Shown: positions 4,289 to 13,406 of the stretch, one piece after another
Numbering within the stretch: position 1 is the first letter of the stretch
Layout: each line of letters opens with the position of its first letter
Assembly: GCA_031362865.1 (NCBI GenBank)
Contig: JANLTH010000033.1
Coordinates: forward strand, 11,811 to 75,810
Direction: 5' to 3'
Length of the DNA: 64,000 nt
DNA from: Burkholderiales bacterium
Lineage (GTDB): Bacteria > Pseudomonadota > Gammaproteobacteria > Burkholderiales > JAEUOS01
Notes under the pieces: generated by a model
Databases searched by the model: none
The model's input: the letters and a program-made list of their open reading frames with translations, nothing else
What the model was told of the DNA's origin: nothing
Translations under genes and position numbers: made by a program

Positions 4289-4909
4289 CTAGTTTCGTAG
4301 ACACTCCATAAAGCAGTGCGTATACGGAATCCATCGCTTGTGCCGGATTTCCACCATTCTATTTGGGTACAGCTCCGCGGCAAGCGAGTCATAGCCCGCT
4401 CGGTTCCGGACGTTTTGCCCTCGATCCTTGCTTATCAAGTAGCGGGCAACCGGATTTTGACCTGGTTCCCAGCATGGATCAACGGTGATCAGGCGACCAC
4501 CAGGTTTTAAGGCAGCATGAGCGAGTTGGAACAAAGCAGCGGCATCGCTATCGGATAAGTGATGTAACACGCCAGACGCAACCACGACATCAACCGGTGG
4601 CAATTTCGCAAGTTCGCCATGGGTCAACAATTTGCGCTCGAAGTTACCCCTTGCGCCGAAGCGCCGTTGGGCATGAGCAATGTAGTCTGGGCTGATGTCA
4701 AAGCCCCAGTAGACTACGCCCTCAGGCAGATATGCCAACAGATCACCGGGCCCACAACCGATGTCGATGATCAAGGTGCCTGCGGATGGCCGAATGCGTT
4801 GGTGAACCAGATTGCGCCACGCCGCTTTGGCCCCCATCAGATTCTGAAAAGTGCTGTAAACCAAGGGCTTAGAAAGCAGGGCGCGAATTCCGTGGGTGAT
4901 TTGGGCCAT
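4289..4909 (-). CDS. Class I SAM-dependent methyltransferase
   Basis: SAM-binding motif I LIIDIGCGPGDLL is present, with post-I and motif II regions (VVVASGVLHHL, LKPGGRL). Confidence 0.8.
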   Translation of the reverse strand: MAQITHGIRALLSKPLVYSTFQNLMGAKAAWRNLVHQRIRPSAGTLIIDIGCGPGDLLAYLPEGVVYWGFDISPDYIAHAQRRFGARGNFERKLLTHGELAKLPPVDVVVASGVLHHLSDSDAAALFQLAHAALKPGGRLITVDPCWEPGQNPVARYLISKDRGQNVRNRAGYDSLAAELYPNRMVEIRHKRWIPYTHCFMECLRN

Positions 4910-4916
4910 TGGCAGC

Positions 4917-5756
4917 TCACACGGTCAAAGTCGGTTTGCAAATAGAACAATCTATCTGAGGCAATGCCCAGGACGGCAGGTGAACAACGAGTCTGTGCAG
5001 TTTAAGGATGGCTATCGCACGCAACGGCACAGTTATCCAAGCCGAATGTCGGGCTGCAAATTGCTTATCGGTCGCTAGTCGGTCAATGCTGTCTGCGAAC
5101 ACTGTTTTTCGAAAGTGCACACGCAAGGACGGCTGTGCATGCAAAGCGCGGTTTATAGCGTCCACTGAAATCCAGTTGAGCGATGCCCACGTGCCTGCCG
5201 GGTCGGATAAATTAGTTTTCCCGAGAATTGCACGGTGCAGCACGGCGAAAGTCAACTTTTTGGAAAAAAGGGTAGGAATGCCGAAGTGAGGTTCGTATGG
5301 AAACCTGTAGTTGGGACAGATGAAGCGATAAGCACTACCGGGGCGCAACGCTGTCAATGTGTTGGCAAGAGCGGCCTGGATATCGTGCACATGCTCCATG
5401 ACATTGACCGAAAACGCGAAATCTACGCTTTCGGGCTGGTGTAGCTCCTCAATGCCATAGCGCAATACGGTCGGGGCGCAGCCCATGGATTGCGCTTTTT
5501 CAAGGATCAAGGATTGCAGCTTAGAAAAAATAGAAAAGCCGACACCAATTGGTTCAAGCGCCGTGACGTTGTAGCCTTCGCGCTGCAACTGCGCGCTGAG
5601 CAACATAAGGCCAGCACCAACCTCAAGAATCGCGCTGCCCGGAGGCAGGGCCGCCAAGTTTTCGGAGAGCCATTGGCGACCAAATTTGGCCTCACTTGCA
5701 AAAGTATCGAACAGCGATAACGCTGCAGGGTCTGCTTGCGCTACAGTTTGCCGCAT
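4917..5756 (-). CDS. Class I SAM-dependent methyltransferase
   Basis: Motif I is ILEVGAGLMLL, with a later NVMEHV motif. The start is placed at ATG 5756 because the upstream 117 codons of ORF 4917-6107 overlap the membrane-protein gene 5809-6180 in another frame. Confidence 0.7.
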   Translation of the reverse strand: MRQTVAQADPAALSLFDTFASEAKFGRQWLSENLAALPPGSAILEVGAGLMLLSAQLQREGYNVTALEPIGVGFSIFSKLQSLILEKAQSMGCAPTVLRYGIEELHQPESVDFAFSVNVMEHVHDIQAALANTLTALRPGSAYRFICPNYRFPYEPHFGIPTLFSKKLTFAVLHRAILGKTNLSDPAGTWASLNWISVDAINRALHAQPSLRVHFRKTVFADSIDRLATDKQFAARHSAWITVPLRAIAILKLHRLVVHLPSWALPQIDCSICKPTLTV

Positions 5757-5808
5757 GGATGCCAAAAATGGGTCTATCGAGACCGGCAGCCCACCGCTTG
5801 TGGGGCTG

Positions 5809-11536: not shown

Positions 11537-11637
11537 GAAAGTTGCGTAGTGTTTCTGGACGATCACCGGCATCTTCGGCATCGCACTCAGCTCTGCCTCT
11601 AGAATATGTTTCGCTCCCTCGTTCCCCGCAGTGTACG

Positions 11638-11893
11638 CGCGGCGGTCACATTTACCCCGCAGTATTTCCGACTACAGAGTTACGTTCCCGACCCATGTCA
11701 GAACTTGCCTTACAAGGTATTCCCGCCGTATTTCAATATGCCCTCTTTCATAGTTCGTCGGCTGGTCGACGGTACGCGCGAACGATGGGAACAGTAGCAG
11801 CAACGGATCATTGCGCCAGGTGCCAATTGAGATTACCAACGTGGATGGGCCTGCAGCGAGCGAGCGTGAAGGAAGCGGTCACAACGTTAGTGA
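11638..11893 (+). pseudogene. Remnant of the 3' end of a second, diverged DegT/WecE-type aminotransferase
   Basis: ORF 11533-11928 encodes GGHIYPAVFPTTELRSRPMSELALQGIPAVFQYALFHSSSAGRRYAR..CQLRLPTWMGL. This aligns with the C-terminus of the intact gene (NAHMFYLMADSLRSRTQAISSLATGGIHSVFHYVPLHNSPAGRRFAR..CLLRLPLWLGL). No N-terminal two thirds is present. Confidence 0.65.
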
Positions 11894-13406
11894 CACCACC
11901 ACGCCAAACGTTGGAAATCCTGTGTTGACAGATTCGCAGCTTCGTAGCTCGGATTATTTCGAATTTCGTGGCGACGGAGCTTTCGCGGTAGCTTTCTTGT
12001 ATGGCATCTGCCACTTAGGAATCATTTTTGTCCCAAATTCACTCTTTTGGGACGACTGGCTCATTGCCAACATCAGCCCCGAAATGCTTTTCGACATGTT
12101 CGACAAAACAGGTTCGGGTGTCTGGGTAGGCTGGCTGCTTAACGCGATCATCACAAATGGACTATTCCTTTCCCGAGTACTTGCGTATTTGTTCTACGGA
12201 GTCGCAACGGTCTGTGTATTCTCCCTTTTGAGACGCCACACCCCGGTTGGGGGAGATTGGGCTTTCGTTGTGGCCGGGCTGTTCGCGATATTGCCACTCA
12301 ACACGGCCCGTGTGAGCTTGATAAGCATGCCTTACGCATTGAACTACTGCACATTTTTTCTCGCTTGGCTTTTTCTCCTCGACCGAAGGAAACTTCTTTC
12401 GGGCAGTCTTTTCTTTTTCAGTTTCTTCACCGCGTCAACACTAGTCTTTTTTGCCCTGCCGATAGCACACCTGTACGCCAAAACGCAATCAAGAATTAGT
12501 ATTCGCGGTGTGGTTCGCTTTGGGCTGGGAAACGCAGGCATTCTCGCGATACCCTTCATTTTTTTTGCGCTCAAGCGATCATTTTTCGTACCCTACGGAA
12601 ACTACGCCGGCTACAACCAAAATTTCTACTGGGATGGCCTCGCCACGCGTTTTGTGCGTTCGTTCGACGACTTTCTGCCTTACGAAATTCAGTGGGGCTA
12701 TGTTCTCTTTCTGTTGATCCCCGTTTGGCTAATGTCCCGCCGACTTAGTCTCACACTTGACCGCAAACTACCCTTCTCCTTTGCACTTTTCGGCATCGGC
12801 GCGGTAGCACTGGTGCTGGCAATGTTTCCGTATCTGATCGTAGGCCACATCCCTACGTTTTGGGAGTGGACCTCGCGGCACCAGTTACTCATGCCGCTCG
12901 GAATCGCGCTTCTAATGGCCGGGTTTCTTGGGGTACTGCCAAACGCAATCCGAACCGTAGCATTTTGTATTCTCATTTCGCTATGCGCTGCGGCAAATCT
13001 GGCTCACTACGTCAGTGTTTGGAAGGATGCGAACAAGCAGGAGAAGCTCCTTGTCGAGATGAAAAAGCTGCCAAATCCGGTGGAGATCACGCTTTACTTG
13101 TTCGACGACAAGACTCCCAACGCCTTGCGTCGCCACTACCGCCAGTACGAATGGACCGGAATGCTGAAGCGTATTCATGGTGACGAGACGCGGTTCGGCA
13201 TCGGCATCCAAGAAGCGCCGAACTACGCCAGGGGTGAGTACGACAAATTGTTTGTAGCTCAGTACCTGGCATCCGGTCATCGCCGCACGAGTACCGCAGC
13301 GCTGCTGGTCGAGGTAAAGAAAGTGAGGCCTCCAAACTGCCGAGCATTCTGCGTAGCGAACTACGAGTTGCATGCAAAGCCGGTGTTAAACGAAACAAAG
13401 CCATGA
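11811..13406 (+). CDS. Polytopic membrane protein, GT-C-like (ArnT/Gtr-type candidate periplasmic glycosyltransferase); start uncertain
   Basis: There are about 11 hydrophobic segments followed by a soluble C-terminal domain of about 130 aa. An acidic WDDW motif lies directly after the first helix (AFAVAFLYGICHLGIIFVPNSLFWDDW). The 5' end overlaps the transaminase remnant, so GTG 11922 or TTG 11925 are alternative starts. Confidence 0.5.
   Translation: MRQVPIEITNVDGPAASEREGSGHNVSDTTTPNVGNPVLTDSQLRSSDYFEFRGDGAFAVAFLYGICHLGIIFVPNSLFWDDWLIANISPEMLFDMFDKTGSGVWVGWLLNAIITNGLFLSRVLAYLFYGVATVCVFSLLRRHTPVGGDWAFVVAGLFAILPLNTARVSLISMPYALNYCTFFLAWLFLLDRRKLLSGSLFFFSFFTASTLVFFALPIAHLYAKTQSRISIRGVVRFGLGNAGILAIPFIFFALKRSFFVPYGNYAGYNQNFYWDGLATRFVRSFDDFLPYEIQWGYVLFLLIPVWLMSRRLSLTLDRKLPFSFALFGIGAVALVLAMFPYLIVGHIPTFWEWTSRHQLLMPLGIALLMAGFLGVLPNAIRTVAFCILISLCAAANLAHYVSVWKDANKQEKLLVEMKKLPNPVEITLYLFDDKTPNALRRHYRQYEWTGMLKRIHGDETRFGIGIQEAPNYARGEYDKLFVAQYLASGHRRTSTAALLVEVKKVRPPNCRAFCVANYELHAKPVLNETKP

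Follow-up and report, generated by a model that had tools for sequence, protein, structure and literature searches.

A gene module at positions 4289-13406 of a 64,000-nucleotide stretch from a Burkholderiales bacterium (contig JANLTH010000033.1) probably encodes a three-stage decoration of a glycan by way of a lipid carrier, of the Gtr/Arn type, at the edge of an O-antigen cluster. In such a pathway an amino-6-deoxyhexose would be made and tailored in the cytoplasm, loaded on undecaprenyl phosphate and flipped, and then transferred in the periplasm by a large membrane protein of a family that has no curated model. A sequence-only reading of this stretch had proposed an Arn/Gtr-like modification of this kind; it is now backed by family assignments, fold similarity and conserved synteny, all computational. 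Throughout, the window means the whole 64,000-nucleotide stretch, which we scanned through a map of its open reading frames (ORFs) and through Pfam and NCBIfam family scans.

The module is divergently organized. The features are listed below, those of the minus strand in their 5' to 3' order and then those of the plus strand, which diverge from the block headed by the family 2 glycosyltransferase (GT2). Every gene in the earlier inventory was present at, or very near, the position it had been given, although a degraded WbqC gene at 6195-6919 had been overlooked.

9211-10134, minus strand: GtrB/ArnC-type GT2, 307 amino acids (aa); Pfam PF00535, E 7e-23
8388-9164, minus strand: MT3, TylF/CalS11-type sugar O-methyltransferase, 258 aa; Pfam Methyltransf_24 and TylF
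6942-8360, minus strand: flavin adenine dinucleotide (FAD)-dependent enzyme resembling glycine oxidase and N-formimidoyl synthase, 472 aa; Pfam DAO, E 5e-32
6195-6919, minus strand: WbqC-family pseudogene; Pfam WbqC matches the C-terminal third only
5809-6180, minus strand: four-helix membrane protein of SMR/DMT type, 123 aa; weak family matches and profile comparison
4917-5756, minus strand: MT2, class-I S-adenosylmethionine (SAM)-dependent methyltransferase, 279 aa from ATG 5756; Pfam Methyltransf_23/11
4289-4909, minus strand: MT1, class-I SAM-dependent methyltransferase, 206 aa; Pfam Methyltransf_12/25/23/11, E 2e-17 to 2e-12
10397-11536, plus strand: WecE-type dTDP-4-keto-6-deoxy-D-glucose 4-aminotransferase (dTDP, deoxythymidine diphosphate), of the DegT family, 379 aa; NF008687, TIGR02379 and structure 4piw
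11632-11853, plus strand: 74-codon relic of a second wecE (3' end); tblastn and BLASTP
11811-13406, plus strand: polytopic membrane protein of an uncurated family, 531 aa; no family match, characterized by an AlphaFold 2 (AF2) model, Foldseek and alignments

A polyprenol-phosphate-type GT2 and a WecE transaminase

Over residues 2-304 the GT2 aligned with the solved polyisoprenyl-phosphate glucosyltransferase GtrB (5ekp, sll0501) at E 1e-54, and over residues 2-305 with E. coli ArnC at 28% identity across 310 residues (ArnC structures, E 7e-34). The similarity to GtrB and ArnC is full-length and takes in the C-terminal helices, represented here by two hydrophobic segments (227-256 and 258-292), and the sequence VDMQDPP of the GT2 is aligned with ADLQNPP of E. 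coli ArnC, the D-x-Q metal/donor motif. As the sequence-only reading had held, the enzyme groups with the polyprenol-phosphate transferases and not with processive or O-unit GT2s. The best NCBIfam models were PgfS (E 1.6e-55, 188 bits against a cut-off of 500) and ArnC (E 2.5e-40, 138 bits against 529); because both scores fall below the equivalog cut-offs, we class the GT2 as GtrB/ArnC-type and as an orthologue of neither. From these alignments it is predicted to be a polyprenol-phosphate sugar synthase.

The PgfS match bears on a different destination for the sugar, namely periplasmic glycosylation of a protein such as a pilin, flagellin or adhesin, in the manner of streptococcal PgfS/PgfM. 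We regard this as very improbable. PgfS is indeed the best NCBIfam match of the GT2, Stt3 heads the structural matches of the large membrane protein (see below), and a flagellin-N fragment adjoins the large-protein relative in one related locus (L001). However, the PgfS score falls well short of its cut-off, no link to a target protein is consistent across the related loci, and polysaccharide genes are always the context.

The transaminase had been described as WecE/RffA-type, and its scores exceed the curated WecE equivalog cut-offs (NF008687, 582 bits against 375; TIGR02379, 576 bits against 435). It matched the solved E. coli WecE (4piw) at E 2e-140 and shares 58-65% identity with the transaminases of six related loci (L001, L003, L004, L010, L011 and L014). 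By curated thresholds it is assigned as a WecE orthologue, and its product is most likely dTDP-4-amino-4,6-dideoxyhexose in the Fuc4N configuration.

A large membrane protein that leans to the GT-C fold

Relatives of the 531-aa protein are numerous. A word-indexed search returned 31, and an exhaustive profile search reached 2,558 cluster representatives at E<=1e-3, with 1,370 at E<=1e-30. For the protein and 29 relatives there was no Pfam or NCBIfam match over the shared region, the only exception being a GtrA fusion (relative P0024, from an actinobacterium, locus L017). The sequence-only reading had pointed to an acidic WDDW motif just after helix 1; it lies at residues 80-83, directly after the first helix (55-73), and an acidic motif in this place is a hallmark of GT-C enzymes. 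In a 30-sequence alignment that includes distant members, W80 and D81 are invariant, as are P162, R356, Q358, D406, K409 and E447, and D82 and W83 are at least 90% conserved among distant relatives. Across some 2,500 relatives WDD likewise holds, and the second W nearly always. Other conserved motifs are PxGxYxGYN and WxSRHQ.

The AF2 model scored 85.8 for mean local confidence (pLDDT, the predicted local distance difference test) and 0.85 for pTM (the predicted TM-score), with almost all of residues 1-51 below a pLDDT of 50 and so disordered. Since the first ~37 codons overlap the wecE relic, homologues begin ~45 residues later and the N-terminus has a pLDDT below 50, we favor a later start: the gene delimited earlier at 11811-13406 stands, but its true start is probably GTG 11922 or TTG 11925.

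Comparison of the model with the PDB by Foldseek placed yeast Stt3 (E 3.7e-3, probability 0.99) and ArnT (E 7.5e-3, probability 1.00, TM-score 0.37) at the top, and further matches were human STT3, AftA (0.80), GPI mannosyltransferase I (0.92) and EmbB/EmbC. Six different GT-C families ranked above MFS and other transporters, whose probabilities were 0.05-0.15. No WaaL, SEDS or acyltransferase structure was among the matches. Loops rich in lysine and arginine occur at 141-143, 191-194, 227-238 and 312-321; under the positive-inside rule these loops, together with the AF2 model, point to an odd-numbered topology that would place all conserved motifs and a C-terminal alpha/beta domain (~420-531) outside the cytoplasm. 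The protein is predicted to be a GT-C-type transferase of an undescribed family that moves a sugar from a lipid carrier to an acceptor. Because the scores are modest and the profile comparisons negative, we rate it only as leaning to GT-C. Fold evidence for the earlier GT-C proposal is moderate: GT-C enzymes were the only matches at high Foldseek probability, but with weak E-values and TM-scores, and by sequence the protein matches none of the curated GT-C families, such as PMT/ArnT, PMT_2, STT3 or YfhO.

The same gene could encode a novel Wzy-type polymerase or another polysaccharide-processing protein, with the GT2 and the small membrane protein serving an unrelated lipid-linked step. Wzy proteins are very diverse, usually lack family matches and occupy the same clusters; in L007 and L005 the large protein has no GtrB-like gene nearby; and the Foldseek E-values are marginal. 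Nevertheless we consider this improbable. The protein matched neither of the polymerase models TIGR04370 and Wzy_C, and a different ORF, 31375-32640, already provides a Wzy-like candidate, the sole Wzy-like match of the window (TIGR04370, E 6e-9). Six GT-C families but no WaaL or SEDS stand among the structural matches, the acidic motif follows helix 1 as in GT-C enzymes, and one relative is fused to GtrA. In addition, the large-protein gene has a WbqC-GT2 pair tightly linked to it in L003, L011 and L018, and in L001 such a pair is a few kb away.

A single SMR-type protein as the flippase candidate

The 123-aa protein had been described as a four-helix EamA/SMR-like protein, a description borne out by weak matches to TMEM234 (E 1.8e-4), MdtJ (3.6e-4), ArnF (1.1e-3, full length) and ArnE (4.5e-3), as well as EamA. 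Its homologues are few and carry precomputed PF00893/PF10639 (SMR/TMEM234) domains. A profile of this small family aligned with E. coli ArnE by hhalign (probability 66%, E 5.6e-5, 95 columns) and gave no match with ArnF. An ArnE-like ORF in L009, which adjoins a large-protein relative, bridges ArnE (3e-12) and the 123-aa protein (8e-7), and homologues of the latter lie within the same operon in L014-L016 and L018. GtrA (PF04138) had no match within the window. We predict from these comparisons that the 123-aa protein is the flippase for the polyprenol-phosphate sugar, an analogue of ArnE/F.

Tailoring enzymes predict an unusual amino sugar

Three methyltransferases and an FAD oxidoreductase had been recognized in the sequence-only reading, and all four genes hold up as three class-I methyltransferases (4289-4909, 4917-5756 and 8388-9164) and a DAO-family enzyme (6942-8360). 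For MT3, the Pfam TylF model scored 25 bits, against a cut-off of 23. The solved protein nearest to it is the TDP-rhamnose 3'-O-methyltransferase CalS11 (E 1e-33, residues 22-227 of 258), with MycF at E 3e-4. CalS11 methylates O-3' of TDP-rhamnose with the sugar still nucleotide-bound, and MT3 is likewise predicted to act on a dTDP-sugar. The nearest solved proteins to MT1 are N-methyltransferases, a weak match (E 8e-9), and MT1 probably carries out N- or O-methylation of the sugar. Its orthologues share 59% identity in L014/L016 and 38% in L004, with MT2 adjoining in every case. MT2 itself is 52% and 45% identical in those loci, respectively, and is present in L018 (E 3e-58); it has no informative relative among solved structures. 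Its start is most likely 5756 and not within the 5809-6180 gene.

The flavoenzyme scored 110 bits with the ThiO model, below the cut-off of 251. Its best solved relatives, which set it apart from generic oxidases, were structures of Orf1, deposited as 'N-formimidoyl fortimicin A synthase' (7xyl and 7xqa; E 5e-55, residues 3-424). Orf1 oxidizes glycine and, by way of a Cys281 N-O-S adduct, moves a formimidoyl or iminoacetyl group to an amine (PMC10156733). Beyond the adduct-forming Cys281, its Arg342 belongs to the glycine site, and H419 and L124 to the tunnel (PMC10156733). All four residues are kept in the window's enzyme, where C281 corresponds to C271, R342 to R337, H419 to H414 and L124 to L114; the cysteine is placed by the pairing of AFAC in Orf1 with GLAC. 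On this alignment the flavoenzyme is predicted to furnish an amine of the sugar with a formimidoyl or iminoacetyl group derived from glycine. Our inference is that an amine, be it the 4-amino group that WecE introduces or another attached to the product, is turned into a substituent of the amidine type; up to three methyls would also be placed on the sugar. Of the 'methylated or oxidised' sugar suggested earlier, the oxidation gives way to N-formimidoylation or iminoacetylation, a better fit to an Orf1/Fms14-like flavoenzyme (PMC10156733).

Conservation of the module in unrelated genomes

We compared 15 loci that encode relatives of the large protein; the donor-side contigs L014-L016 were reached separately, from the 123-aa protein. 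A GtrB/ArnC-like GT2 lies at most 10 kb from the large-protein relative in 11 of the 15, a DegT transaminase is present in 11 of 15, and GtrA, an SMR-like small protein or a GtrA fusion in 8 of 15. GtrA occurs in L001, L002, L003, L011 and L019 and is fused in L017. Large-protein relatives have a full-length orthologue of the window's GT2 beside them, at 25-33% identity, in L017-L019 as well as in 8 of the first 12 loci.

Gene order is shared as well. The order large protein, WbqC, GT2 was found in L003 (Pseudomonas maioricensis), L011 (Noviherbaspirillum) and, in divergent form, L018, which has the layout of the window: the large protein lies opposite a strand that carries WbqC, GT2 and, further on, the small protein (E 1e-21) and MT2 (3e-58). 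WecE precedes the large protein in L001 and L004, with a WbqC-GT2 pair a few kb away in L001. Either the triad of WbqC, GT2 and large protein or the pair of WecE and large protein also appears in a Pseudomonadales metagenome-assembled genome, Thermoanaerobaculia, Desulfobacteraceae, the actinobacterium with the GtrA fusion, and others. Checked across genomes in this way, the same gene sets recur together in unrelated organisms, which speaks against a chance grouping and lends the lipid-carrier reading independent support.

The donor side has a history of its own. On the metagenomic contigs L014-L016, all of the window's donor-side genes lie in a single operon, at 33-67% identity, together with rmlA: WbqC, GT2, a fourth methyltransferase, MT3 (67%), the flavoenzyme (53%), the small protein (50%), MT2 (52%), MT1 (59%), rmlA and WecE (64%); the values for MT3 and the flavoenzyme hold for L014/L016. 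Before WbqC in L014 (1991-3499) and L016 (1991-3502) stands an unrelated 502-aa polytopic protein with an acidic GWDEETY motif after helix 1, probably a different terminal transferase family in the same slot. We also considered the L014 protein as a diverged member of the large-protein family and rejected this, phmmer and hhalign both being negative. Gtr systems would lead one to expect conserved donor machinery combined with an interchangeable terminal transferase specific to the acceptor, and the L014 gene set fits this pattern.

A trace of such exchange may be preserved in the window. Directly downstream of the intact wecE, and overlapping the annotated start of the large membrane gene in another frame, the relic at 11632-11853 matches WecE residues 288-361 at 40.5% identity (tblastn, E 1e-13; BLASTP, E 2e-11) and also matches the WecE proteins of other loci. 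It is probably a recombination scar that joins the donor module to the transferase gene. The relic, together with L004 and L001, where WecE is followed by the large protein, and L014, where the donor operon ends in WecE, suggests that a cassette of WecE plus transferase was fused to an L014-like donor cassette, after which the redundant wecE decayed.

A broken WbqC gene and an intact paralogue

Within the minus-strand block, the WbqC gene has been lost. Three-frame translation of 6195-6919 revealed a TGG to TAG change, a second in-frame stop (TGA) and one frameshift; two stops and a frameshift are too many for sequencing error, and the neighboring genes are intact. What remains is 32-38% identical to intact WbqC proteins. 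An intact copy lies elsewhere in the window:

2513-3292, plus strand: intact WbqC paralogue, probable start ATG 2600; Pfam WbqC, E 2e-73

This paralogue, 3.6 kb away, may replace the lost function in trans. It shares 46% identity with the WbqC of the L014 operon and is closer to the operon type than the pseudogene is. It adjoins a second DegT gene, a hexapeptide acyltransferase and a MocA-type oxidoreductase.

As an observation in its own right, these neighbors make up a second amino-sugar set at 21-3292 (plus strand), in which the oxidoreductase is cut by the window edge and the DegT protein has PseC/ArnB-like scores, none above cut-off. The set resembles a WbpB/WbpD/WbpE-type route to a 3-amino sugar and is the second pairing of WbqC with DegT in the window.

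The WbqC family has at least 8,000 close matches with 41 invariant columns, and has been called uncharacterized (PMC5532660). An AF2 model of the intact protein (2600-3292) had a pLDDT of 94.9. Foldseek found no credible match for it in the PDB, only faint HUP-class matches at probabilities up to 0.44, and a search of PDB sequences found none. In relatives the WbqC gene is translationally coupled to the GT2 gene, with an overlap of 4 nucleotides in L014 and L016. Judged from its model, WbqC has an orphan fold, and its genes keep company with those for amino sugars and GtrB-like proteins. WbqC may have a link to the N-glycyl group of Qui4NGlyAc, a sugar of E. coli O121.

Proposed pathway and its acceptor

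Under the preferred reading, dTDP-4-keto-6-deoxy-D-glucose would be supplied by RmlA and RmlB encoded elsewhere and aminated in the cytoplasm by the WecE-type enzyme to dTDP-4-amino-4,6-dideoxyhexose. The CalS11-like MT3 would O-methylate the sugar, MT1 and MT2 would add further methyls, and the Orf1-like flavoenzyme, with glycine and O2, would convert the amine to a formimidoyl (amidine) or iminoacetyl group. The GtrB/ArnC-like GT2 would then load the finished sugar on undecaprenyl phosphate, the single SMR/ArnE-like protein would flip the lipid-linked sugar to the periplasmic face, and the large GT-C-type enzyme, with WDDW in its first outer loop, would transfer it in the periplasm, the acceptor most likely being the neighboring O-antigen. 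We infer which exact sugar is made and in what order it is tailored, as well as the topology and the acceptor.

The same machinery could instead act on lipid A or core, where an Arn-like cationic sugar (amine or amidine) would lower surface charge and give resistance to cationic peptides. ArnT is among the best structural matches of the large protein (probability 1.00), the flippase candidate is ArnE-like rather than GtrA-like, and a formimidoyl-amino sugar, as the Orf1 similarity would have it, or a free-amino sugar would be positively charged. Even so, this acceptor appears unlikely. Both for the module and for its relatives, the surroundings are clusters of O-antigen or capsule type, in which wzx, wzy, GT4s and genes for nucleotide sugars occur; the family scans found no ArnA-/ArnD-like formyl-cycle genes and no regulatory genes near the module; and the large protein has no sequence similarity to ArnT.

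Several observations weigh against O-antigen decoration by this route. Taken as absolute values, the scores of the GT-C fold match are weak (E 3.7e-3 to 7.5e-3, TM-score 0.26-0.37), the profile of the large protein gave only noise against all PDB sequences, and hhalign between this protein and E. coli ArnT was negative (probability 0.4%). With the curated ArnE and ArnF models, the 123-aa protein scored 17-19 bits where the cut-offs are 92-99, and the window and L014-L018 each have a single small gene of this type, not an ArnE/ArnF-type pair. Neither rmlA nor rmlB was found in the window. In the flavoenzyme, Q421 stands where Orf1 has E426, part of a Glu-water dyad; the PDB chain that matches best likewise carries Q at this place, but could be a mutant entry. 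No GtrB-like gene is within reach in 4 of the 15 large-protein loci. L005 is flanked by insertion sequence elements, and L006 and L012 are short contigs. In L007 (Bdellovibrionota), the large-protein relative lies inside a NeuB/NeuC/LegB cluster with no GtrB nearby, which hints that some members of the family work with nonulosonic-acid clusters or with a GT2 encoded elsewhere. Finally, the module's own WbqC is a pseudogene and the wecE relic attests to a recent rearrangement, so that the pathway may have been altered or have partly decayed.

A fuller proposal can be offered only tentatively, and we would sooner expect it to fail in some part than to hold throughout. According to it, a methylated 4-N-formimidoyl (amidine) 4,6-dideoxyhexose would be built on undecaprenyl phosphate and attached in the periplasm, to our knowledge the first formimidoylated sugar of a bacterial envelope glycan; the attaching enzyme would found a GT-C family of ~2,500 sequence clusters with WDDW and WxSRHQ and no characterized member; and bacteria would pass the donor half and the acceptor half to one another as two separate cassettes.

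Surroundings of the module

On the plus strand, the transaminase and the 531-aa protein are followed by wzx (13699-15033) and, 3' of it, by a long O-antigen operon with LegB, LegC, NeuC, NeuB, a PglD-like acetyltransferase and WbuX, together with two HisH/HisF pairs, a Wzy-like protein, GT4s and FnlA-C-like genes. Part of this operon (15002-31365, plus strand) encodes a nonulosonic acid pathway of the legionaminic-acid type, in which LegB (519 bits) and LegC (528 bits) both exceed their cut-offs. It further includes NeuC, NeuB, the PglD-like protein, a CBS-NTP transferase, a CMP-transferase and a class-III aminotransferase, as well as WbuX and two separate HisH/HisF-like pairs. Such a gene set points to O-antigen sugars that bear amidino (acetimidoyl) groups. 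In L007 (1032-6696) the large-protein relative comes directly after genes for a LegB-like protein (58% identical to that of the window), NeuB, an epimerase and a NeuC-like protein. Two ORFs of the window's O-antigen cluster, at 27465-28901 (plus strand, 478 aa) and 40351-41514 (plus strand, 387 aa), had no Pfam or NCBIfam match.

The G+C content is 50-56% up to ~42 kb and 59-63% beyond, with a step from ~0.53 to 0.62 near 41500-42000 that is probably the edge of a horizontally acquired polysaccharide island. At the other end of the module, the minus-strand order continues past MT1 with one more gene:

3318-4205, minus strand: secreted right-handed beta-helix protein; signal peptide, PF13229 and a weak NosD-like match

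This protein was considered as a module member and dropped; because no related locus carries a homologue, it probably lies outside the module.

Significance

The decorations that O-antigens and lipid A receive late, in the periplasm, control phage receptors and serotype and how well a cell resists cationic peptides, and the terminal GT-C enzymes are hard to recognize from sequence. The locus offers a testable entry to an uncurated family of ~2,500 clusters whose members are often beside GtrB-like, GtrA/SMR-like and amino-sugar genes. It also leads to the prediction that flavin-dependent formimidoyl chemistry, of which the known cases so far are confined to aminoglycoside and streptothricin antibiotics, has been reused on a cell-surface sugar. 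Module shuffling can be followed in it as well, with the same donor genes joined elsewhere to another terminal transferase, a wecE relic at the joint and the linked WbqC dead. Should its function prove ordinary, the analysis would still supply a useful rule for annotating the hundreds of proteins that polysaccharide loci list as 'hypothetical membrane proteins'. The overall architecture is one that specialists would expect; the uncharacterized family and the predicted formimidoyl sugar are concrete leads.

Comparison with known systems

In Gtr systems, a GT2 with two C-terminal helices loads undecaprenyl phosphate, a small protein flips the product and a variable polytopic GT-C enzyme decorates the O-antigen (PMC7685785). 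The module follows the same three-part logic as O-antigen glucosylation by GtrA/GtrB/GtrC in Shigella flexneri and the phage-borne gtr clusters of Salmonella: its GT2 is closest to a solved GtrB, relatives of its large protein adjoin GtrA or are fused to it, and its terminal transferase appears swappable in the way that GtrC is, L014 carrying a different one. It differs in that the predicted donor is a tailored dTDP-amino-6-deoxyhexose, whereas the Gtr donor is UDP-glucose, that the flippase candidate is SMR/ArnE-like and not GtrA, and that the terminal enzyme falls in no described GtrC family. Moreover, the module is chromosomal, embedded in an O-antigen cluster and equipped with its own sugar-synthesis genes.

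With the Arn pathway, which modifies lipid A with Ara4N, the module shares a DegT-family transaminase, an ArnC-like GT2, an SMR-type flippase candidate, a putative GT-C enzyme with a fold match to ArnT, and an amine-bearing sugar. In contrast to Arn, it lacks the ArnA/ArnD formyl cycle, has one small protein where Arn has the ArnE/ArnF heterodimer, and its large protein is dissimilar to ArnT in sequence. The predicted sugar is a 6-deoxyhexose from a dTDP precursor, the gene set adds methyltransferases and a formimidoyl-synthase-like enzyme, and the context points to O-antigen and not to lipid A. The sequence-only reading had remarked that the combination is not a standard Arn or Gtr set, and we concur: it brings together a new terminal family, an SMR-type flippase candidate in a Gtr-like setting and Orf1-type chemistry.

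Similarity between the flavoenzyme and Orf1/Fms14 extends over 420 residues, with the adduct-forming Cys and the glycine-binding Arg kept. The known enzymes, however, act on antibiotic scaffolds in actinomycetes, whereas the module's enzyme occurs in a Gram-negative surface-glycan setting, and the Glu of the Glu-water dyad is apparently Gln in it.

In function, the closest precedent for a side branch of amino-6-deoxyhexose comes from wxcK/wxcN of Xanthomonas. Mutants in wxcK or wxcN lose the FucNAc branches, so that branching requires wxcK, a transaminase, as well as wxcN, a small membrane protein (PMC4878081). Like the module, region 3 in the Xanthomonas campestris wxc cluster, which provides Fuc3NAc branches on a rhamnan O-antigen, uses a dTDP-derived amino-6-deoxyhexose as a side branch. 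The wxc sugar, in contrast, is 3-amino and N-acetylated, and wxc has neither methyltransferases nor a flavoenzyme.

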